A stretch of 64,000 nt of DNA from a virus (IMGVR_UViG_3300017565_000001:205741-269740); one strand, 5' to 3'. Positions 1,284-53,438 are shown, counted from the first letter of the stretch. Program-made: numbers and translations. Notes: a model not told the origin generated them from the letters alone.

Positions 1284-1344
1284 GGGATACCTGCAGCAAA
1301 CTCACTTACTTTTTCTTCATGCGAAAAACCCAAGTGTGTATCCC
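1284..1344 (+). ncRNA. minimal CAGCAA-stem RNA (Y-RNA-like)
   Basis: GGGATAC/GTATCCC closing stem, CTGCAGCAA, hairpin TTTTC-TTCATGC-GAAAA. Confidence 0.65.
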
Positions 1345-1464
1345 GTTATTTTCAATTTAACTTTCAGGAGAGCCTGTCATGGCAAGTGACAAATCTGGCA
1401 AACGCCTGGGAGTCATCACCTAATACCCTACTGGGGATTGTGTGGTAGACTCCCGAAACATAAT

Positions 1465-3717: not shown

Positions 3718-3796
3718 GGGCGAATGACGGGAATTTGGTATACCTCGTTGGTTTAGATTCAATGGTTTGTCGGTTCGAGTCCGACTTTGCCCACCA
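3718..3796 (+). tRNA. tRNA-Leu(TAG), short variable arm
   Basis: loop TT-TAG-AT, ACCA. Confidence 0.85.
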
Positions 3797-3804
3797 GTTT
3801 TAAT

Positions 3805-3935
3805 GCCCGGTTAGCTCAATTGGTTAGAGCGCGTAGAAGCCGAAAGGCACTATCCTGACAAGGATAGTTACAGCAATCAAACTCACATCCATGCTAAGGA
3901 CGAGGTTGGTGGTTCGAATCCATCACTGGGCACCA
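3805..3935 (+). ncRNA. tRNA body carrying an inserted CAGCAA-stem module
   Basis: normal acceptor, D-arm, T-arm and CCA; interior has ACTATCCT-GACA-AGGATAGT-TACAGCAA then TCC-ATGCTAA-GGA. Confidence 0.75.
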
Positions 3936-3948
3936 TTTTGCAAGACAA

Positions 3949-4086
3949 GTGTTATTTGATGTGGTACCTGGTGTTGGCCCAGTATGAAAGAACGTGGTCG
4001 GAGTCTACTCAACTCTAAGGCTGCCAGTATTTCGGAGCATTCGCAAAGAAGCCAGGATGTGGTAGGAGTATCACATCAAATAGCAT
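3949..4086 (+). ncRNA. structured ncRNA enclosed by long terminal stem
   Basis: GTGTTATTTGATGTGGTAC pairs with GTATCACATCAAATAGCAT; no ORF. Confidence 0.55.
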
Positions 4087-4139
4087 TTAGAATTTGACGC
4101 CATGAATGGCGATTAGTATAGTAGTGGTTCACCGGCAAT

Positions 4140-9490: not shown

Positions 9491-9578
9491 GCGCACTAAG
9501 GCGTAGGCCACGCTAAGTGAGGTCACAGCCGCACTCCTAATAAGAGTGGGGTTGCAGGTTCGAATCCTGTGGTGTGCC
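9491..9578 (+). ncRNA. tRNA-Ile(AAT)-like RNA with expanded D region, no CCA
   Basis: CACTC-CTAATAA-GAGTG arm, GCAGG-TTCGAAT-CCTGT T-arm, inside long stem 9476-9593. Confidence 0.6.
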
Positions 9579-9699: not shown

Positions 9700-10594
9700 G
9701 GGACGTCTAAGTTCCAGTTGGTGGCTTCGGTCGCTGACAAAAAGGATAAGTGAGGTAACTCACCCAACGCGGGTAATCCTACATAACCGCGCCATGCTTG
9801 CATGGTCCATTTAGACAAGCCTGCTCACTACCGAAAGGTAGCCATCACTTCCCAACGGGTGGTGGTAATTGTGAAGCAAGTGAAGTGGAAAGAATTGTCG
9901 TTTACACGCCTGTTTTGACTTCGGTCATTACGGGGAACGTGAGCAACAAGAGAGTAACAGGTGGTGCTGACCTCACTTCAAAACCAACTTGCCAACTTGT
10001 ATGAGAAAGGGTAGCTAATTGTTCCGAGGTGTTGCAACCAAGGGGTAGTTAGCAGTTCTAATGGTTGACGGGCATATGCACGTTAATCGTGAAGAACGAC
10101 TGAGTAGTCCGCAAGACGAAAGGTACATGGTGTGTTGTATTTCGTGGCTCAAAAGGTCATGAAGCAACTGAGGCAGCACATCATAGTAGGTTGCAATATA
10201 GCTCATTTGGTAGAGCAATTCCATGTTAAGGAATCGGCGGTGGGTTCAAACCCCACTATTGATAAAAATGCAAAGTCTGCCTCGGTATGTTGTGAAAGTC
10301 ATCTAATGCTCAGAGCTTCGGCTAACTGAGTCCAGGAAAGCTCGCAAGGCCTACTTGGTTTATGTTTAGATTTTCGTAAGTGGTTAGCGCTGCTGAATGG
10401 CCCGCAAGGTCAGCGTAATGAAGAACGTAGAATAGCAACATGCGACAAGCCTACTGCCTGGCTTTAAAAACGGCGATGACGCTAGTGGACAGTATGAGAC
10501 GAAAGTCCGTATTGTGGATGTCGAGAGAAAGTTGCCCGCAAGGTGACCAATAATGCTCGAGGCACTAGTAGGAACCATGTAATCTCAGTGGTCC
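9700..10594 (+). ncRNA. probable GOLLD RNA
   Basis: ~900 nt non-coding, dense GNRA/UUCG hairpins (GCAA, GAAA, TTCG), GGTGGTGCTG and terminal GTAATCTCAG motifs recalled from GOLLD, in a tRNA cluster, followed by hairpin 10602-10620. Confidence 0.7.
10192..10263 (+). tRNA. tRNA-Asn(GTT)-like module embedded in the large ncRNA
   Basis: TAGCTCATTTGGTAGAGC D-arm, TTCC-ATGTTAA-GGAA, GTGGG-TTCAAAC-CCCAC; short acceptor, no CCA. Confidence 0.65.
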
Positions 10595-19398: not shown

Positions 19399-19513
19399 GG
19401 TTGGTTTCAGCAAACAAAACTTACTCTTCTGCAAAAAGAAAGGCCCAGGTTCGAATCCTGGCGTGGGGTTGGGATCCTACGTGGTGTAGTGGATAGCACA
19501 AAACATACCAACC
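19399..19513 (+). ncRNA. permuted tRNA-like CAGCAA RNA (YrlA-like topology)
   Basis: GGTTGGT/ACCAACC stem, TTCAGCAA, TCTT-CTGCAAA-AAGA hairpin, T-arm CCAGG-TTCGAAT-CCTGG, looped acceptor, D-arm; promoter TTGATT-17-CAGAAT. Confidence 0.8.
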
Positions 19514-22296: not shown

Positions 22297-22857
22297 ATGG
22301 AAGCACCCATCATTTACATTCCGAAATTTGTTGCTGATCCTGATGTTGCTTTTCAGCAACTGTGGGATGAACTCGCGTGGGTGCGCCATGACAAGGTTCC
22401 CCGTCGCGAGTACTACTCCAACGACGTACCACAGCCCTACACTTACGGGTTGAAGGATTATGCTCGCACGTACGAGCCGCAGCCCTGGCACCCAGTCATG
22501 AAGACCCTACAGGTCATGCTGAAGGCAGAAACCGGCCATGACTTTGAAGTCTGTTTCTTGAACGGATATGAAGATCAGTCCGATCAGCTGGGTTGGCACT
22601 CCGACGATTCGCCGGAGATGGATGACAACCGTCCCATCGCAATCATCAGCCTGGGTGTTGAGCGTGAAATCCACTTCCGTGAAATCGGCAACAAGAGCAA
22701 CCAGAATGACATTCACAAGGTCAAGCTGGGACACGGCAGTCTGTGCTTGATGAATGCCGGAATGCAGGACACGCATCAGCACCGCATTCCCAAAGCATCG
22801 TTCATGTGCGGTGCTCGTATCAGTTTGACCTTCCGCGGTTACGTACCCAATAACTGA
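22297..22857 (+). CDS. AlkB-family 2OG-Fe(II) dioxygenase
   Basis: LNGY..GWHSDD..SLG.ER..HRIPK..RISLTFR. Confidence 0.9.
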   Translation: MEAPIIYIPKFVADPDVAFQQLWDELAWVRHDKVPRREYYSNDVPQPYTYGLKDYARTYEPQPWHPVMKTLQVMLKAETGHDFEVCFLNGYEDQSDQLGWHSDDSPEMDDNRPIAIISLGVEREIHFREIGNKSNQNDIHKVKLGHGSLCLMNAGMQDTHQHRIPKASFMCGARISLTFRGYVPNN

Positions 22858-26813: not shown

Positions 26814-26986
26814 TGGTTAGATACAGCAATGTACTCTGAAAATCCGACAAGTGGCGCAAGCCCAGAAGCATTTGAGTCGGTCGCTTGAATGCTTCTTTGA
26901 GGGTTCGACTCCCTCCACTGCTAAGGGTAAAACCTCTGTAGTGTGGTGAAATTGGTAGACACATCGGACTTAGACTCAACTAACCA
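26814..26986 (+). ncRNA. permuted tRNA-Leu-like CAGCAA RNA
   Basis: TGGTTAG/CTAACCA stem, ATACAGCAA, TCCGA..TCGGA stem, long variable arm, GAGGG-TTCGACT-CCCTC, looped acceptor, GGTGAAATTGGTAGACAC D-arm; promoter TTGCTT-17-TAAACT. Confidence 0.8.
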
Positions 26987-27076
26987 GTTTGTTCTCCTTA
27001 TTGGGCTCTGTTTGAAAGAGCAGAGCCCAATTCATAATGTGTTTTGGTATCAGATCACATTATGAATTGCAGTTTT

Positions 27077-27197
27077 GGGTTCGTTACAGCAAACAAACTA
27101 TCCTACTGGAATCAGCTTACCGTGGGTTCGAATCCCACCTGGAGTTTACACTCCAGTAGCCAAGTTGGTAAGGCAGCTGACGGAAAAACACGAACCC
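27077..27197 (+). ncRNA. permuted tRNA-like CAGCAA RNA
   Basis: GGGTTCGT/ACGAACCC stem, TACAGCAA, GTGGG-TTCGAAT-CCCAC, CTGGAGT-TTAC-ACTCCAG acceptor, GCCAAGTTGGTAAGGC D-arm. Confidence 0.85.
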
Positions 27198-27206
27198 GTT
27201 AATTTT

Positions 27207-27338
27207 TGGATCATTACAGCAACATACGATACCTCAAGCTCCGGACACGGGTTCGATTCCCGTAGACCATTAATTTGGTTTTCGTCTAGCGGCAGGATAG
27301 GAGCCTCGCATCGGTGGTAAGGCCCACCGGATGATCCA
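27207..27338 (+). ncRNA. permuted tRNA-Glu-like CAGCAA RNA
   Basis: TGGATCAT/ATGATCCA stem, TACAGCAA, CTCAA-GCTCC..GGAGC, ACGGG-TTCGATT-CCCGT, TCGTCTAGCGGCAGGA D-arm. Confidence 0.85.
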
Positions 27339-28683: not shown

Positions 28684-29298
28684 ATGGCAATTGGTTTCAA
28701 TGTAATTCGTTTGGCATCTGGTGGTTGGTTCAACTTTGATGAGCCCGAAAACAACAGGGTTCAGATCCAGGATGTGGCCCATGGTCTGGCGTTTATCTGC
28801 CGATATGGCGCGCAATGTCCTCGTTTCTATTCAGTAGCCAGCCACTCTGTCCTCGTCAGCCAAATTCTGTACCACATGGGTGAATCCATTCATGTACAAT
28901 ACGAAGGATTGATGCATGACTCCAGTGAAGCGTTCATGGGCGATATGGTGACCCCGCTGAAGCGGCTCTGTCCCGAATATGCTGGTATTGAAGGACGAGT
29001 GCTTGCCAACTTGGCTGAGACTTTCGGCTTCAACCATGAGTTTCACTCCAGCATGGACCAGGCTGACAAGACTGCTCTGGCTATGGAGAAATGGACGTTC
29101 TGGCCCGATTCTGAACCATGGGAAATTCTGATCAAATACGGTCTGGAAACTAGGGATGGTGGTCGAAACCAAAAGTGGGCGGCTTTGATGGAAGACCCAA
29201 GCATCAAGCGAGCATTGGTGACTGGTAGCTACGATGAGGCCAGCTATTTTCTGGATCATTACAACAAACTTCGCAAAGAGATTGATAATGGAAATTGA
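28684..29298 (+). CDS. HD-domain phosphohydrolase (YfdR/YfbR-like)
   Basis: DVAHGLA..CRY..YSVASHS..LMHDSSEAFMGDM. Confidence 0.88.
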   Translation: MAIGFNVIRLASGGWFNFDEPENNRVQIQDVAHGLAFICRYGAQCPRFYSVASHSVLVSQILYHMGESIHVQYEGLMHDSSEAFMGDMVTPLKRLCPEYAGIEGRVLANLAETFGFNHEFHSSMDQADKTALAMEKWTFWPDSEPWEILIKYGLETRDGGRNQKWAALMEDPSIKRALVTGSYDEASYFLDHYNKLRKEIDNGN

Positions 29299-29692
29299 AT
29301 CAAAACAAGTCATCGTGGTCCGTAAGGATCTGGGGATGCGCAAAGGCAAGATGATTGCGCAAGGAGCTCACGCCAGCATGGCGGCTGTAATCAACCAAGG
29401 CCACATCACCGAAGGGCAAGATCCCAATACCCATTATCTGGTCATCCCCATGGATCCAGAAATGCATGTGTGGATCAACGGTCGCTTCAAGAAGATTGCC
29501 GTATCGGTAAACAGCGAAGCAGAATTGCTGGCAATTCACCAGAAGGCCCTGGACGCTGGCCTTTACAGTGCCCTGATACAAGACGCAGGTCTGACGGAGT
29601 TTGGGGGCCAGGCGACCTATACGGCGGTGGCAGTCGGTCCCAATAGGGCTGATAAAGTCGACGCGATCACCGGCTCTCTGCCACTGCTCTGA
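29288..29692 (+). CDS. pth2: peptidyl-tRNA hydrolase, Pth2 type
   Basis: KQVIVVRKDL.M.KGK.IAQGAHA..DAGLTEF..T..AVGP..VD.ITG.LPLL. Confidence 0.92.
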   Translation: MEIESKQVIVVRKDLGMRKGKMIAQGAHASMAAVINQGHITEGQDPNTHYLVIPMDPEMHVWINGRFKKIAVSVNSEAELLAIHQKALDAGLYSALIQDAGLTEFGGQATYTAVAVGPNRADKVDAITGSLPLL

Positions 29693-32151: not shown

Positions 32152-32241
32152 TGGATCAAGACAGCAAAGTTATTTGGCACTTTCCAGCTACAGGCTGGAA
32201 AACAACAAAGATTGCCTAATCTCAAAATAGGCATTGATCCA
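32152..32241 (+). ncRNA. CAGCAA-stem RNA immediately upstream of DUF2828 gene
   Basis: TGGATCAA/TTGATCCA stem, GACAGCAA, two internal hairpins. Confidence 0.7.
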
Positions 32242-32365: not shown

Positions 32366-33781
32366 ATGTCCACTTTCGCTCAAGCAGTTGCCGCTCAAAC
32401 CACGACCACCACCAACGGTGCCAAGGCTTACACCTCCACCCTGAGTGCGGCGGTTGATCTGTTCTTCAAGATCGGCGCCAGCCGTGGCAAGAACATCATC
32501 TCGGATTTCACCGCCGCTTATGTGGAGAATCCGGATGTCGCTCTGCGTATCGCGCAATGGGCTCGTGACGTGCGTGGTGGCTCGGGAGAACGCCAAATCT
32601 TCCGTGACATCCTGCAACACCTGGAGAACTCGGCTCCGGCCGACGCCCAGCGTCTGATCAACAACATTCCGGAGATCGGACGCTGGGATGACCTCCTGGT
32701 CCTGACCAACCCCCTGCTGAAGCAACATGCTTTCGGCCTGATCAAGGTTGCGCTGGAAGCCGGCAACGGCCTCTGCGCAAAGTGGATGCCGCGCAAGGGT
32801 AAGGTCGCCGAAGAACTTCGCGCGTTCCTGGGCTATTCGCCCAAGCGTTACCGCAAGACTCTGGTGACGCTGACCCAAGTGGTCGAAACGCAGATGTGCG
32901 CCCAGCAATGGGATGAAATCGAATTCGGTAAGGTGCCCTCGGTCGCCGCTGCTCGTTACAAGAAGGCGTTCAACCGTAACGCGCCGGAAACTTTCGCCGC
33001 TTACGCGGACGCGCTGAGCAAGGGTGAAGCCAAGGTCAACGCTGGTGCGGTGTTCCCGTACGATGTGCTGAAGGGCGCATTCTCGCAGTATGGCCGTAAC
33101 TCCATGCCTCTGCCGGAACGTCAACACGCTATCGCCCAGTGGGCCGCTCTGGAAAACTTCGTGGGCGATGCATCGGTTCTGCCGATGGTCGACGTGTCGG
33201 GTTCCATGTACTGCCCGGCCGGTGGTCACAACTCCAAGTCGAACGTGACTTGTATGCAGGTCGCCGTTTCGCTTGGTCTGTATCTGGCGGAAAAGAACAC
33301 GGGCGCGTTCAAGGACACGTTCCTGACGTTTACCGATCAGCCCAAGCTGTACAACCTGAAGGGTGACGTCTTCCAGAAGATGGATCAGATGACCGGTAAG
33401 GTTGGCTACAGCACCAACATCCAAGCCGCTTTCCGTGAAGTTCTGCGTGTGGCGGTGGAAGGTAAGGTTGCTCAAGCTGACATGCCGGCAAACATCGTGA
33501 TCCTGAGCGATATGCAGTTCGACCAGGTGTCGCGTGACGACGCTACGGCGTTCGACATGATTCGCGAAGAGTACAAGGCCGCCGGCTACGACGCTCCGCG
33601 TATTGTGTTCTGGAACCTGAACGCGCATGGCAACGTTCCGACCCGCTTCAACCAGTCGGGTGTTGCACTGGTTTCGGGCTTCTCGCCCGCGATCGCGAAG
33701 ACCGTTCTGAAGGCCGAGAACTTCGACCCGATGAACATCATGCTGCAAGCTGTGATGGTTGACCGCTACACGCTGGCGTAA
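32366..33781 (+). CDS. DUF2828 family TROVE/Ro60-like RNA-binding protein with vWA domain
   Basis: TNG..ST..VDLFF..GASRG, RDVRGG.GER, GRWDDL, AKWMPR, YRK, VPS.A, vWA MIDAS DVSGSM, ILSDMQFD, FWNL, VSGFSP; strongly biased codons. Confidence 0.85.
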   Translation: MSTFAQAVAAQTTTTTNGAKAYTSTLSAAVDLFFKIGASRGKNIISDFTAAYVENPDVALRIAQWARDVRGGSGERQIFRDILQHLENSAPADAQRLINNIPEIGRWDDLLVLTNPLLKQHAFGLIKVALEAGNGLCAKWMPRKGKVAEELRAFLGYSPKRYRKTLVTLTQVVETQMCAQQWDEIEFGKVPSVAAARYKKAFNRNAPETFAAYADALSKGEAKVNAGAVFPYDVLKGAFSQYGRNSMPLPERQHAIAQWAALENFVGDASVLPMVDVSGSMYCPAGGHNSKSNVTCMQVAVSLGLYLAEKNTGAFKDTFLTFTDQPKLYNLKGDVFQKMDQMTGKVGYSTNIQAAFREVLRVAVEGKVAQADMPANIVILSDMQFDQVSRDDATAFDMIREEYKAAGYDAPRIVFWNLNAHGNVPTRFNQSGVALVSGFSPAIAKTVLKAENFDPMNIMLQAVMVDRYTLA

Positions 33782-33864: not shown

Positions 33865-35142
33865 ATGAATGCAGCATTTGATAGTCTGTACAAGAAAGCC
33901 GTTCTGAAGAACGTGGTGTCATGGGATGTGGCCACCAACCCGTTGTCTGACGCGCAGTCGTTGGAGGAGCAACTTGACGTTGAATACAACGATCAATTGG
34001 TGGCATTCATTGCTGCGAATCCAGATCATCCGGTGTCAAAGTTTGTTGGGCAGAATACCCTGAACAGTGACTTGATTGCTCGTAGCAGCACTATTACGAA
34101 TCGTCTCAGCAACAAGTACAAGGAGATGAAGAAGACCAGGGCTCCTGCTGACGCTGAATATTTCCGTCTCTTCCAGGATGCAATCGAGATCAGCAAGGAG
34201 GCATTGGCTTATTTGGGCCGAACCTCTGGTGATGCATTTACATTTCAGGATCCCATCCTGGGTACCAAGAAGCAAGTTTACGACTTGGTTCGTGGTATGG
34301 CTGACATCAGTAGGGAGTTCATGCAGAGTGGTCGCACGAATGTGAACGAGCAAAAGCTTACGAAAACGTTCCAGGATGGTCTCCAATACATGGATGCCAT
34401 TCAGGGTATCTCCTACAAGATCTCCGATGAAAACGGGTCGTTCATGACAGCTTTGGACAAGAACAATTCTCGGATCCACATTGCGAAGACTGACAAGAGC
34501 GATTTCGAGAAACTGTCGAGTGTCACCCACGAAGTCGGCCACGCTCTTTACCAGAATATGTTCTTGAACAAGCTACCCATCGGCCAATTGGGTGACTGTC
34601 TGTCCCTGTCATTGCATGAGAGCTCGTCCATCTTCAACGAGATTTCTCTGAGCGGCATCAATCCTGAGATCAAACTGGAACCCGCCTCCCTGTATCGCCT
34701 GGGTTCCAACAAACTGGCCTACATCATCCACATCTTCATCCGTATGGAAGTTGAACGGATGTTGTTCGAGGAGAATATGCCAGCAAGCGATATCCCGCAA
34801 GCATGGAACAAGCTGGTTGAGTCATACATCGGGTTGACTCCCAGTAACGACTGGGAAGGCTTCCTGCAGGATGTTCACTGGAATCACGGCATGTTTGGTT
34901 ACTTCCACAGCTATGCCATCGGATTCCTGAATGCCACTCTGATGTATAGTGACGTGAAAGACCAACTGACTGGTGACATGTTGCGCGACACTATGGAAGT
35001 GGTGATGCCCAAGATCGGCAAGGAATATGGTGATCGTTTTGACGAAATGTCATCTAACATCCTGTCGACCGTTCACCCTGACATCCAGGAAACTTTGACT
35101 CGTTATCGTGCATTTGTCTTTGATACCTTCTCAAACGCCTAA
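33865..35142 (+). CDS. M32 family metallocarboxypeptidase
   Basis: HEVGHALY, LHESSS, LQDVHW..G.FGYF.SY. Confidence 0.88.
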   Translation: MNAAFDSLYKKAVLKNVVSWDVATNPLSDAQSLEEQLDVEYNDQLVAFIAANPDHPVSKFVGQNTLNSDLIARSSTITNRLSNKYKEMKKTRAPADAEYFRLFQDAIEISKEALAYLGRTSGDAFTFQDPILGTKKQVYDLVRGMADISREFMQSGRTNVNEQKLTKTFQDGLQYMDAIQGISYKISDENGSFMTALDKNNSRIHIAKTDKSDFEKLSSVTHEVGHALYQNMFLNKLPIGQLGDCLSLSLHESSSIFNEISLSGINPEIKLEPASLYRLGSNKLAYIIHIFIRMEVERMLFEENMPASDIPQAWNKLVESYIGLTPSNDWEGFLQDVHWNHGMFGYFHSYAIGFLNATLMYSDVKDQLTGDMLRDTMEVVMPKIGKEYGDRFDEMSSNILSTVHPDIQETLTRYRAFVFDTFSNA

Positions 35143-37708: not shown

Positions 37709-38008
37709 ATGAAGCCTGGATTCACTTGTTCAATCAATACCTATTGTAGAGGCCAGGTATTATTCCTACCTGACGGGCGGCGAAAAACGCCCCGAGCCAC
37801 TATGCAGCTTTCTTGGAGGGCGAAATCTCCCAGCGAACATTTTGCGTTCAAGGACGAGATCATGCGGTGGGCAAAAGACAGTTGTCTGGGGGCTATCAAT
37901 TTTTATGGAGGCAGTGCCACGCCACAATCCAATGGTTTCTGGTGTACGCTTCGGTTTCGCTTTGAACTGCTGGAAGACGTGGCAACTTTTAAGCTGGCTT
38001 GGTGTTGA
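37709..38008 (+). CDS. FExxEDAxxFKL family protein
   Basis: FELLEDVATFKLAW. Confidence 0.75.
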   Translation: MKPGFTCSINTYCRGQVLFLPDGRRKTPRATMQLSWRAKSPSEHFAFKDEIMRWAKDSCLGAINFYGGSATPQSNGFWCTLRFRFELLEDVATFKLAWC

Positions 38009-38102
38009 CTTTAAACCAAACTGGCATTATCATTTGCCTTGTAGTAACTCAATGGTAGCGGATGGGGCTCGAAAATCCATTCACAACTATTGGGAGATTT
38101 AC

Positions 38103-38675
38103 ATGAAGAAGATTGTTTCGCTGTTCGTGCGTGACTTTACTGGTAATCGCAAGGTCATGGACCAGGTTTCGCCTGGAGCGGAATGGGTAGCTGATGGAGA
38201 AGGCGTTGCCACTCGTAAATGGGATGGTATCGCCGTAATGGTGAGGGGAGGCCAATATTTCCGGCGTTACGACGCCAAGACCGGTCGAACCCCTCCCCAG
38301 GACTTCATCCCGGCCCAACCGCAACCTGACCCGAAGAGTGGGCATTGGCCTGGTTGGGTCCCTGCTGTTCTACCCGAGTCCAAGTACATCTTGGCAGGAA
38401 TCGAGTGGGGCAAGCGGAATCTGTTCCAGGACGGCGCGATCCCTGATGGGACCTACGAAGTTTGTGGGCCTCGTATCGGAACCCGCCATGGTGCCAACCC
38501 TGAGGGACTGACTGAGCACATCTTGGTTCGTCATGGCCAAGATGAACTGGCTGATTGCCCGCGAGACTTTCAAGGCTTGATGACTTACTTGTCTGATAAG
38601 TGCATTGAAGGAATTGTGTGGCACCATCCAGATGGTCGTATGGTGAAGATCAAGAAAGCTGACTTCCCATACTAA
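38103..38675 (+). CDS. ATP-dependent RNA ligase-like protein (DUF5565/RLIG1-type)
   Basis: ATRKWDG (KxDG), HWPGWVP, GTYEVCG, EGIVW, KIK nucleotidyltransferase motifs. Confidence 0.75.
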   Translation: MKKIVSLFVRDFTGNRKVMDQVSPGAEWVADGEGVATRKWDGIAVMVRGGQYFRRYDAKTGRTPPQDFIPAQPQPDPKSGHWPGWVPAVLPESKYILAGIEWGKRNLFQDGAIPDGTYEVCGPRIGTRHGANPEGLTEHILVRHGQDELADCPRDFQGLMTYLSDKCIEGIVWHHPDGRMVKIKKADFPY

Positions 38676-52254: not shown

Positions 52255-53193
52255 ATGGCAATCGATCTATGGACTGAAAAGTATCGCCCTACCACTCTTG
52301 ATGAGTATGTATGGCGGGAACCCGCACAGAGGGCTCAGGTAGAGTCCTGGCTGCAAGATAAGGTGTTGCCTCACCTCTTGCTGTCTGGTGTGCAAGGTAG
52401 TGGCAAAACGTCTTTGGCGAAGCTCATGCTACGTCTTCTAAACGTTAATCCAGGTGACATTTTGGAAGTGAATGCCAGTCGCGAACGTAAGGTCGAAGAT
52501 GTTCAGACTAAGATCCTGAACTTTGTCAGCACTTGGCCTATTGGTGACTTCAAGTATGTGTTGCTGGACGAAGCTGATTCCATGAGTCAGTTGGCTCAAC
52601 GGATGCTGCGTGGTGAAATGGAGAAGTATGCTGATTCATGTCGCTTCATCCTGACTTGCAACTATCCCAACAAGATCATTCCAGCTCTCCATAGTCGTTG
52701 CCAGGGTTTCCACTTTGATGCCTTGGATCAAAACGAATTCATGGTACGTTGCGCAACCATTCTTTCGAATGAGGGTGTGGCTATGGAAACTGAGGAAGAC
52801 ATTATGGTCTTGAACGAGTTCGTGGAGATGACCCATCCCGACTTGCGCAAGTGTATCAACCTCATGCAACAAAACGTTCTGGGTGGCAAACTTCGCAAAC
52901 CAGAAGTCCGTGATAGTGGTGGCAAGGACTATCTGTTGGAAATGGTTGGGTTGTTCCAACAAGGTCAATATCTGGCAGCCAGAAAGTTGATCGTTGGGCA
53001 AGCACAACCCGAAGAATACGAAGAGATTTACCGCTTCATGTATCAAAACTTGCAGGTTTGGGGAGATACTGAGGAACAACAGAACGAAGCTCTGTTGATT
53101 ATTCGTAAGGGTTTGGTAAATCACGGGCTGGTGGCCGATGTTGAGATTAACTTGGCTGCAACTATTGTTGAACTTACCCAGCTGAAGAAATGA
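52255..53193 (+). CDS. sliding-clamp loader AAA+ subunit (RFC small / T4 gp44-like)
   Basis: WTEKYRP, G..GSGKT, NAS, LDEAD, SRC, DLRK.IN. Confidence 0.93.
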   Translation: MAIDLWTEKYRPTTLDEYVWREPAQRAQVESWLQDKVLPHLLLSGVQGSGKTSLAKLMLRLLNVNPGDILEVNASRERKVEDVQTKILNFVSTWPIGDFKYVLLDEADSMSQLAQRMLRGEMEKYADSCRFILTCNYPNKIIPALHSRCQGFHFDALDQNEFMVRCATILSNEGVAMETEEDIMVLNEFVEMTHPDLRKCINLMQQNVLGGKLRKPEVRDSGGKDYLLEMVGLFQQGQYLAARKLIVGQAQPEEYEEIYRFMYQNLQVWGDTEEQQNEALLIIRKGLVNHGLVADVEINLAATIVELTQLKK

Positions 53194-53438
53194 GCAAGAA
53201 GTTCGTGGATAAGGTGGCAACAAGCGCCATATTGGATTTCATAACCTATATGTCGGCGTCGGATCAACCATTGTCAATTTCTCGCAATCATGAGATTCCT
53301 GCGGCACTAAATCGTGTCAAAGAATTCTTGGAGTTGCGGGATTGTGCTAAGGCTTATGATGATGGTGATCCGGATTATTGGCGATTCCTTAATCCAGAAC
53401 GCAAGCACAACAAAAAGAAAAATAAACGAAGGAAATAA
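53190..53438 (+). CDS. hypothetical protein
   Basis: ATGA coupling. Confidence 0.65.
   Translation: MSKKFVDKVATSAILDFITYMSASDQPLSISRNHEIPAALNRVKEFLELRDCAKAYDDGDPDYWRFLNPERKHNKKKNKRRK

Follow-up and report, generated by a model that had tools for sequence, protein, structure and literature searches.

What kind of RNA is encoded by a gene that has the acceptor stem, D arm, T arm and CCA end of a tRNA, and whose anticodon stem is opened on one strand by a 55-nt branch? The gene in question (hereafter the element) lies in a 64,000-nt stretch of viral DNA (the window), taken from an IMG/VR phage genome that has terminal repeats and measures 424,529 bp (bases 205741-269740); Megablast returned no cultured-phage match to the region. 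ARAGORN finds 56 tRNA genes in the 424-kb genome, and the element sits within a same-strand tRNA array, its start 8 nt past a tRNA-Leu gene (3718-3796), with no terminator-like site between the two and none directly 3′ of the element. A search for a close paralogue of its body among the 56 tRNAs of the phage gave generic similarity only, and the element is therefore not a recent duplicate of one of them.

A tRNA-shaped gene with a branched anticodon stem

The original prediction, made from sequence, described a tRNA with normal acceptor, D and T arms and an encoded ACCA, whose anticodon region holds a stem closed by a GACA loop, followed immediately by a conserved motif and then by a small TCC-ATGCTAA-GGA hairpin. 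Each of these modules was found in place (Table 1): the acceptor forms seven of seven pairs, the GACA-closed stem eight of eight, UACAGCAA follows directly, and the 3-bp hairpin lies beyond it at 3888-3900. The minimum-energy fold recovers all helices (z = -3.3), and the Rfam tRNA model (RF00005) matches 3805-3932 over model positions 1-71 with 45.5 bits against a threshold of 29, the alignment placing 65 nt in the anticodon region where 11 are expected. Acceptor, D and T arms and the conserved core bases are thus those of a tRNA; an unbroken 5-bp anticodon stem in an RNA of 70-95 nt is not what we find, as the 5′ strand of that stem is split by the 55-nt branch and the RNA measures 131 nt.

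Table 1. Features of the element and of related loci, in positions of the window.
Feature	Position	Strand	Remarks
Whole element	3805-3935	+	tRNA-shaped RNA gene in normal module order, with 55-nt anticodon-stem branch and encoded ACCA; 131 nt in total
Acceptor stem, 5′ strand	3805-3811	+	7/7 pairs with 3925-3931
D arm	3814-3830	+	4-bp stem, 9-nt loop, G18 G19; U8, A14 and A21 present
"Far" piece, anticodon-stem 5′ strand (CGU)	3832-3834	+	pairs with 3900-3902; 3 pairs kept in the Rfam alignment
A-rich spacer and 3-bp mini-hairpin with GAAA loop (3839-3848)	3835-3848	+	from the minimum-energy fold
Handle helix, 8/8 bp	3849-3856 / loop GACA 3857-3860 / 3861-3868	+	
Conserved single-stranded motif UACAGCAA	3869-3876	+	directly 3′ of the handle helix
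A/C-rich linker	3877-3887	+	
Small hairpin, 3 bp and 7-nt loop	3888-3900	+	distal part of the anticodon stem-loop
"Near" piece, anticodon stem	3888-3890	+	
7-nt anticodon-type loop	3891-3897	+	U33, GCU at 3893-3895, A37, A38
Continuous 3′ strand, anticodon stem	3898-3902	+	
5-nt variable loop and T arm	3903-3924	+	T arm 3908-3924, standard T loop, G53-C61 pair
Acceptor 3′ strand, discriminator A and encoded CCA	3925-3935	+	A73 and CCA at 3932-3935
Permuted sibling	27077-27197	+	handle open, acceptor closed by 4-nt loop
Permuted sibling	27208-27337	+	
Permuted sibling with long extra arm	26814-26987	+	
Permuted sibling, motif variant UCAGCAA	19399-19513	+	ARAGORN miscall as tRNA-Cys
Small handle RNA: stem, UGCAGCAA and one hairpin, without tRNA body	1284-1347	+	
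Handle RNA without tRNA body	32153-32241	+	~125 nt upstream of the DUF2828 start codon
DUF2828 + DUF7788 protein, 471 aa, vWA DxSxS motif, predicted Ro60 fold	32366-33781	+	putative partner

What changes is the reading of the anticodon region. The handle (helix and motif) is indeed inserted there, but the anticodon arm is not replaced by it, since a canonical 7-nt loop survives; likewise the small hairpin is present, but it forms the outer end of a composite anticodon stem-loop and is no separate decoration. As comparison with relatives shows, the "far" and "near" pieces together with the continuous 3′ strand form a composite 5-bp anticodon stem, and the handle with its flanking single strands is a three-way-junction side branch off the 5′ strand of that stem. 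The covarying helix of 5-9 bp, then N-A-CAGCAA, with a G after the 3′ strand, by which handle RNAs are recognized, is present in the element.

As had been anticipated, standard tools misread such genes. Default ARAGORN does not call the element, and its intron mode reports a tRNA-Val(cac) with a 45-nt intron, a call that we rejected because neither the conservation of the 7-nt loop nor the covariation of the composite stem is taken into account. Two relatives in an Erwinia phage have been entered in GenBank as tRNAs, 116 and 122 nt long. No intron family in Rfam matches the element at E <= 10; group I introns in bacterial or phage tRNA genes measure ~200 nt or more and interrupt the anticodon loop, whereas the insert here has 55 nt and lies in the stem; and no archaeal-type bulge-helix-bulge, in which a 4-bp helix with a 3-nt bulge on either side marks the exon-intron borders, is evident in the minimum-energy fold.

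Other RNAs and RNA-like features were recorded along the way. Directly 3′ of the element, 3947-4088 (+) folds into a multi-branched structure of ~140 nt with a closing stem of ~21 bp (z -2.1), has neither an Rfam match nor an obvious ORF, and may represent a further small RNA in this array. A tRNA-Asn (10191-10265) is embedded in a full-length GOLLD RNA (10127-10591, +; Rfam 199.9 bits), and at 9491-9578 (+) ARAGORN reports a tRNA with a four-base anticodon (caca), which could be frameshift-suppressor-like or otherwise aberrant. Outside the window, at genome positions 53129-53203, lies a tRNA with anticodon CUA (amber-suppressor type; labelled Pyl by ARAGORN), and a similar tRNA occurs at 290410-290485 of Erwinia phage pEa_SNUABM_49. 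Finally, a long near-perfect hairpin at 1705-1770 has UACAGCAA in one arm and the complementary sequence in the other; this inverted pair (1716-1762) was rejected as a handle, the motif being base-paired within the long perfect hairpin.

A recurrent, covarying class in two topologies

Is the element an isolated oddity? UACAGCAA followed by the standard T-loop sequence was found at more than 118 viral loci among the matches listed, in both normal-order and permuted topologies, compared with 10 for a composition-matched 8-mer and 37 for a control pattern of ordinary D arm and T loop. (A scan of the genome for a 7-bp stem beside CAGCAA was uninformative, as ~40% of the occurrences of any hexamer pass it.) A covariance model built on the normal-order architecture, R1, gives normal-order relatives 62-118 bits and ordinary tRNAs no more than 61; the element reaches 105.6 bits and is the sole such element in the 424-kb genome. 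In all we count ~45 normal-order elements in ~30 phage records, several of them in some phages, a total that includes three from records selected by protein and four in the cultured Erwinia phage pEa_SNUABM_49. In the latter (MW879344.1) the four lie at positions 277331, 295663, 296109 and 297312. Two of these normal-order handle elements carry GenBank tRNA labels: tRNA-Lys(ttt) of 122 nt at 297312-297433, and a 116-nt tRNA-Phe(aaa) at 295663-295778 that is wrongly labelled, its actual body being Glu-like with a UUC loop triplet.

In a covariance-model alignment of 38 normal-order relatives, 94.3% of the structural cells are paired overall, a figure somewhat inflated by the fitting of the alignment to the model, against at most 48% when the partners are slid, and all six helices covary; because of these slid controls and the many compensatory changes, we regard the structure as secure despite the model-fitted alignment. 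The acceptor stem is paired in 100% of cases with compensatory changes at all seven pairs, of the far pairs, the two included in the model are 96% paired, with compensatory cells numbering 17 and 23, the near pairs are 83.5% paired with 12-15 such cells each, and the eight handle pairs are 87% paired with both-side changes in all. A G starts the handle loop in 38/38 relatives, and the first base of the GACA loop is the counterpart of the conserved G that follows the 3′ strand of the helix in the open, permuted forms. By comparison, the mini-hairpin at 3839-3848 is confined to this copy, the spacer of its aligned relatives being A-rich and unstructured. The anticodon-type loop has 7 nt in 32/38 relatives, with 8-9-nt loops also occurring, and among those 32 it bears U33 in 29, a purine at 37 in 25, A38 in 26 and A34 in none. 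Homologues thus keep both the stem and CAGCAA, on the conservation of which the original prediction had staked itself beforehand, and with ~45 members in a recurrent covarying class the element is not the one-off intermediate that it might have been.

These data bear directly on whether the gene is simply a decaying pseudo-tRNA that has suffered a chance insertion and has no function, a reading that would fit its omission by default ARAGORN and its interrupted anticodon stem. We consider this highly improbable: decay would not be expected to leave ~45 relatives in ~30 phages that share an invariant motif and keep the loop frame while every helix shows compensatory changes, nor would it leave an acceptor with seven of seven pairs, the full set of core tertiary bases and the tight link to one protein family described below.

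The same stem and CAGCAA module recurs in the window in a second topology. The element had been described as the circular permutation of elements at 19399, 26814, 27077 and 27207, and the order of modules bears this out exactly: in the element a loop caps the handle and the acceptor stays open, and the permuted siblings show the reverse, with a closed acceptor and an open handle. Among 45 permuted relatives, the near stem with a 7-nt loop is seen in 22, of which 20 have U33 and 20 a purine at 37. The acceptor-closing loop contains NCCA in 7/45, and many such loops are tight (4-6 nt); a free CCA is thus a trait of the normal-order topology and not of the whole family. Furthermore, the handle also closes two RNAs in the window that have no tRNA body at all (Table 1), and in some phages of 75-84 kb a compact operon runs from one normal-order element through two small handle RNAs to the DUF2828 gene, the last handle RNA ending at the ribosome-binding site of that gene.

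One might nevertheless suppose that the element is a new kind of intron-bearing tRNA, from which the 55-nt insert would be excised and the pieces of the 5′ strand joined to leave a 76-nt tRNA with anticodon GCU. The handle helix and motif would then be a processing signal, and the permuted genes would undergo the same cutting and joining, followed by opening of the acceptor loop. Such a scheme would account for the far and near pieces always totalling a 5-bp stem and both covarying with the 3′ strand, for the canonical loop, for a body type that matches the anticodon in several relatives and for a CCA that tracks that of tRNA genes (see below); an RNA-ligase-like gene is at hand at 37842-38675, and in small phages some triplets are missing from the canonical tRNA set. 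The distribution of the handle speaks against it, however. The same handle closes RNAs without tRNA exons (1284-1347, 32153-32241) and is shared by permuted forms in which a tight loop of 4-6 nt seals the acceptor, with NCCA in only 7/45; the position of the branch varies between nucleotides 28/29 and 29/30, and 8-9-nt loops exist; and no group I intron was matched in Rfam. Bodies without a long arm bear Ser, Leu and Tyr triplets, a canonical tRNA-Ser(GCU) is already present in this genome, and one body type carries four triplets across phages. Finally, the tightly linked protein is a predicted Ro60-fold RNA-binding protein and no nuclease. On balance we hold excision of the insert to be improbable.

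Linkage of the handle to a Ro60-like protein and comparison with known systems

The protein gene in question encodes a DUF2828 protein whose AlphaFold2 model (pLDDT 89.6) has 13 fold matches in the PDB at E <= 0.001, all of them Ro60/TROVE proteins matched over the full length with TM 0.38-0.64, including those of Thermus phage phiLo (the best), Xenopus, Deinococcus and human. At the level of sequence this kinship is faint, with no match to the TROVE profile, nothing in a sequence search of the PDB and a marginal signal to Ro60 in a profile search (E about 0.1), confined to the vWA region. The family is very large, comprising more than 6,000 clusters at 50% identity and 711 cultured-phage records.

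The gene and the handle occur together. DUF2828 is encoded in 31/40 motif-bearing viral records, and in 22/24 of those that are at least 90% complete, against 3/32 control records with tRNA genes (2/10 when complete). Conversely, when 62 DUF2828 loci were picked by protein similarity alone, CAGCAA was present on the coding strand within 500 nt upstream in 56 of them, and that 500-nt interval holds 96 occurrences, compared with ~8 in each 250-nt bin of the more distant upstream sequence. In the window, the handle RNA at 32153-32241, which has no tRNA body, occupies this position. In four separate record groups the DUF2828 gene is immediately preceded by normal-order elements; in the present phage the element is 28 kb from it, and a search with R1 within 1.5 kb of the 80 DUF2828 genes closest to that of this phage recovered ordinary tRNAs only, so that adjacency of the normal-order form to DUF2828 is limited to some phage groups. 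We infer a partnership between the protein and the handle from this gene linkage together with the similarity in fold. The gene has RNA- and tRNA-related neighbours on the same strand, which encode an AlkB-type 2OG oxygenase (22297-22857), a PTH2 peptidyl-tRNA hydrolase (29234-29692), an M32 carboxypeptidase (33865-35142) and an RNA-ligase-1-like protein (37842-38675).

A close parallel is YrlA (RF02553), the Y RNA of bacteria and mycobacteriophages that partners Ro60/Rsr. As in YrlA, a tRNA-like module of D arm, T arm and acceptor is joined to a putative protein-binding helix, and a short conserved motif lies on the strand just 3′ of the 5′ half of that helix. YrlA genes adjoin that of a Ro60 protein; the gene of the protein with the predicted Ro60 fold is adjacent to relatives of the same topology in other phages and 28 kb distant from this element. 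In Mycobacterium smegmatis, YrlA is cleaved by RNase P and receives a CCA (Chen et al. 2014, PMC4201824). The differences are nonetheless clear: UACAGCAA occupies the position of GNCGAAN0-1G in the Ro-binding stem of YrlA (PMC4201824); the protein is DUF2828, has no TROVE profile match and is Ro60-like in fold only; and the element ends at the acceptor, has its handle closed by a loop and retains a full anticodon-type stem-loop, whereas the ends of YrlA pair in the protein-binding stem. In Rfam, the YrlA model reaches 35.5 bits, below threshold, on the tRNA-like part only of a permuted sibling (27114-27182), and 21.5 bits against a threshold of 69 near the element, in a hit that spans the T arm of tRNA-Leu and the D arm of the element.

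Phage and bacterial Ro60 genes are known to have Y-like RNAs, with a stem and an internal-loop motif, directly upstream (PMC12135203, PMC4201824). Thermus phage phiLo resembles the present case in pairing a phage Ro60-fold protein with partner RNAs encoded directly upstream, Yrl1 and Yrl2 (PMC12135203; PDB 9KOP, 9L5Y), which have been proposed to capture host PNPase for counter-defence (PMC12135203); unlike the handle RNAs, they bear a CGAA motif and have no reported tRNA body, and the protein is TROVE by sequence. The handle itself resembles the Class I RNAs of Dictyostelium (RF01414; PMC7919456), where a short covarying stem is likewise followed directly by an 11-nt motif containing UACAGCAA and where the Rfam consensus also has a conserved 3′ end, an unpaired G after the stem and a variable cargo. 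Those RNAs differ from the element in being eukaryotic, ~60 nt long, without a tRNA body, with ends at the stem and with an RRM binding protein, and the element is not one of them: the Rfam model Dicty_Class_I_RNA has no match to the element at E <= 10 and gives the small RNA at 1284-1347 only 12.6 bits (threshold 41.5), and only the motif core is shared. The coexistence of one architecture in two topologies, with the chain ends moved, recalls one-piece and two-piece (circularly permuted) tmRNA and the permuted tRNA genes of Cyanidioschyzon (PMC3978253), with the differences that there is no mRNA-like module, that no bulge-helix-bulge is evident and that both topologies reside in one genome.

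A functional lead comes from Bas63 gp130, a Ro60-like protein of a Felix O1-type phage, which is reported to counter the Ppl defence and whose Y RNAs the authors supposed to be among the neighbouring "tRNAs", no RNA partner having been tested there (bioRxiv 10.1101/2024.10.10.617714). In Felixounavirus a DUF2828 homologue with 41% identity heads the tRNA array, at the same place as gp130, and from genus and gene position we infer membership of gp130 in the DUF2828 family. The phage handle RNAs and their normal-order form are absent from Rfam 15 and from the literature that we searched, and searches on DUF2828, on the text of the motif and on Ro60-like anti-defence likewise yielded no description of handle RNAs.

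tRNA-type ends, loop triplets and a putative role

If the handle is the protein-binding part, why should the rest of the RNA be a tRNA? The 3′ end is informative. Of 13 loci with CCA-encoding tRNA genes, 9 have a normal-order element that ends in NCCA, and at loci whose tRNA genes are without it NCCA is found in 0/15 loci and 0/21 elements. The CCA of these elements tracks that of neighbouring tRNA genes and their 3′ end therefore behaves in evolution like that of a tRNA, which favours the assignment of a tRNA-type terminus.

The loop triplets are more ambiguous. There are ~20 different ones, and they vary among the elements of one phage. In some relatives the triplet fits the body (Glu-like D arm with UUC, Lys-like with UUU, Pro-like with NGG and G37), but Ser, Leu and Tyr triplets, the GCU of this element included, sit on bodies without a long variable arm, and one body type is found with UUC, GUC, UCG or GCC in different phages. 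SerRS recognises the long variable arm, and this genome already encodes a canonical long-arm tRNA-Ser(GCU). When the triplet was compared with the canonical tRNAs of the same phage, it duplicated one of them in 7 of 12 cases and did not in 5. This pattern suits a mimic that needs a real-looking anticodon loop, suits a plain decoder less well and is compatible with charging. At the same time the strictness of the loop (U33, purine 37, no A34) and the matches between body and triplet exceed what a passive scaffold would need, a hint of real tRNA function.

That function could in principle be decoding, with the insert kept, the tRNA charged and the branch serving only for the Ro60-like protein to bind, protect, sequester or deliver it. 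The complete set of core tertiary nucleotides, the canonical loop without A34, the CCA that follows the tRNA genes and the differing triplets within one phage are all as one would wish. Yet the GCU body lacks the long variable arm of the phage's own tRNA-Ser, the triplet is redundant in 7/12 cases with no clear gap-filling, a 55-nt branch at base pairs 28-30 would likely clash with the decoding sites of the ribosome, and the permuted siblings with closed acceptors are not chargeable as transcribed while sharing all else. We therefore judge a working decoder unlikely.

We favour the view that the element is a Y-RNA-like partner of the Ro60-like DUF2828 protein of the phage, with a tRNA topology and a tRNA-like maturation, and hold this to be probable from the comparative and modelling data: the same handle is found in small RNAs beside the gene of a Ro60-shaped protein, so that the element is probably the tRNA-shaped partner RNA. 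It would be co-transcribed with the tRNA array, as suggested by its position 8 nt from tRNA-Leu with no terminator between; RNase P would cut its 5′ end, and the RNA would end in CCA. The insert would stay in the mature RNA and the handle would dock into the ring of the Ro60-like protein, leaving the L-shaped body, which bears the anticodon-type loop and the CCA end, to be presented to a tRNA-binding partner, for which a synthetase, an elongation factor, a modification or repair enzyme and a host tRNA-cutting defence nuclease are candidates. The RNA may thereby act as a tether or as a decoy, and because Bas63 gp130 is reported to counter Ppl, an anti-defence role appears the most likely setting.

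A true hybrid is also conceivable, in which a charged tRNA that engages synthetases, EF-Tu or the ribosome would permanently carry a Ro60-like docking site; we find this unlikely. Were it so, the phage would be tagging chosen tRNA species with a protein, the tag might shield anticodon loops from host tRNA-cutting defences or bring a Ro-like particle to the translation machinery, and the permuted genes would yield the same particle with its nick elsewhere.

Under the favoured reading, that of a tRNA-shaped partner RNA, the element has implications beyond this phage. Ro60/Y-RNA particles are known from animals, some bacteria and a few phages. Here, a very large phage protein family with a predicted Ro60 fold is accompanied by its own handle-bearing RNAs, among which the normal-order handle tRNA appears to be a form of Y-like RNA absent from Rfam and from the literature searched. 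A complete tRNA can receive the handle and still retain the anticodon loop and CCA end; the tRNA features therefore seem to be under selection themselves, which would suggest a tRNA-binding target and not simply the stability of a scaffold. In practical terms, handle elements explain the odd "tRNAs" of 115-130 nt in phage annotations, and a cultured model is available in Erwinia phage pEa_SNUABM_49 with its four normal-order genes. Finally, the motif held in common with the Class I RNAs of Dictyostelium hints at a much wider family of RNPs.
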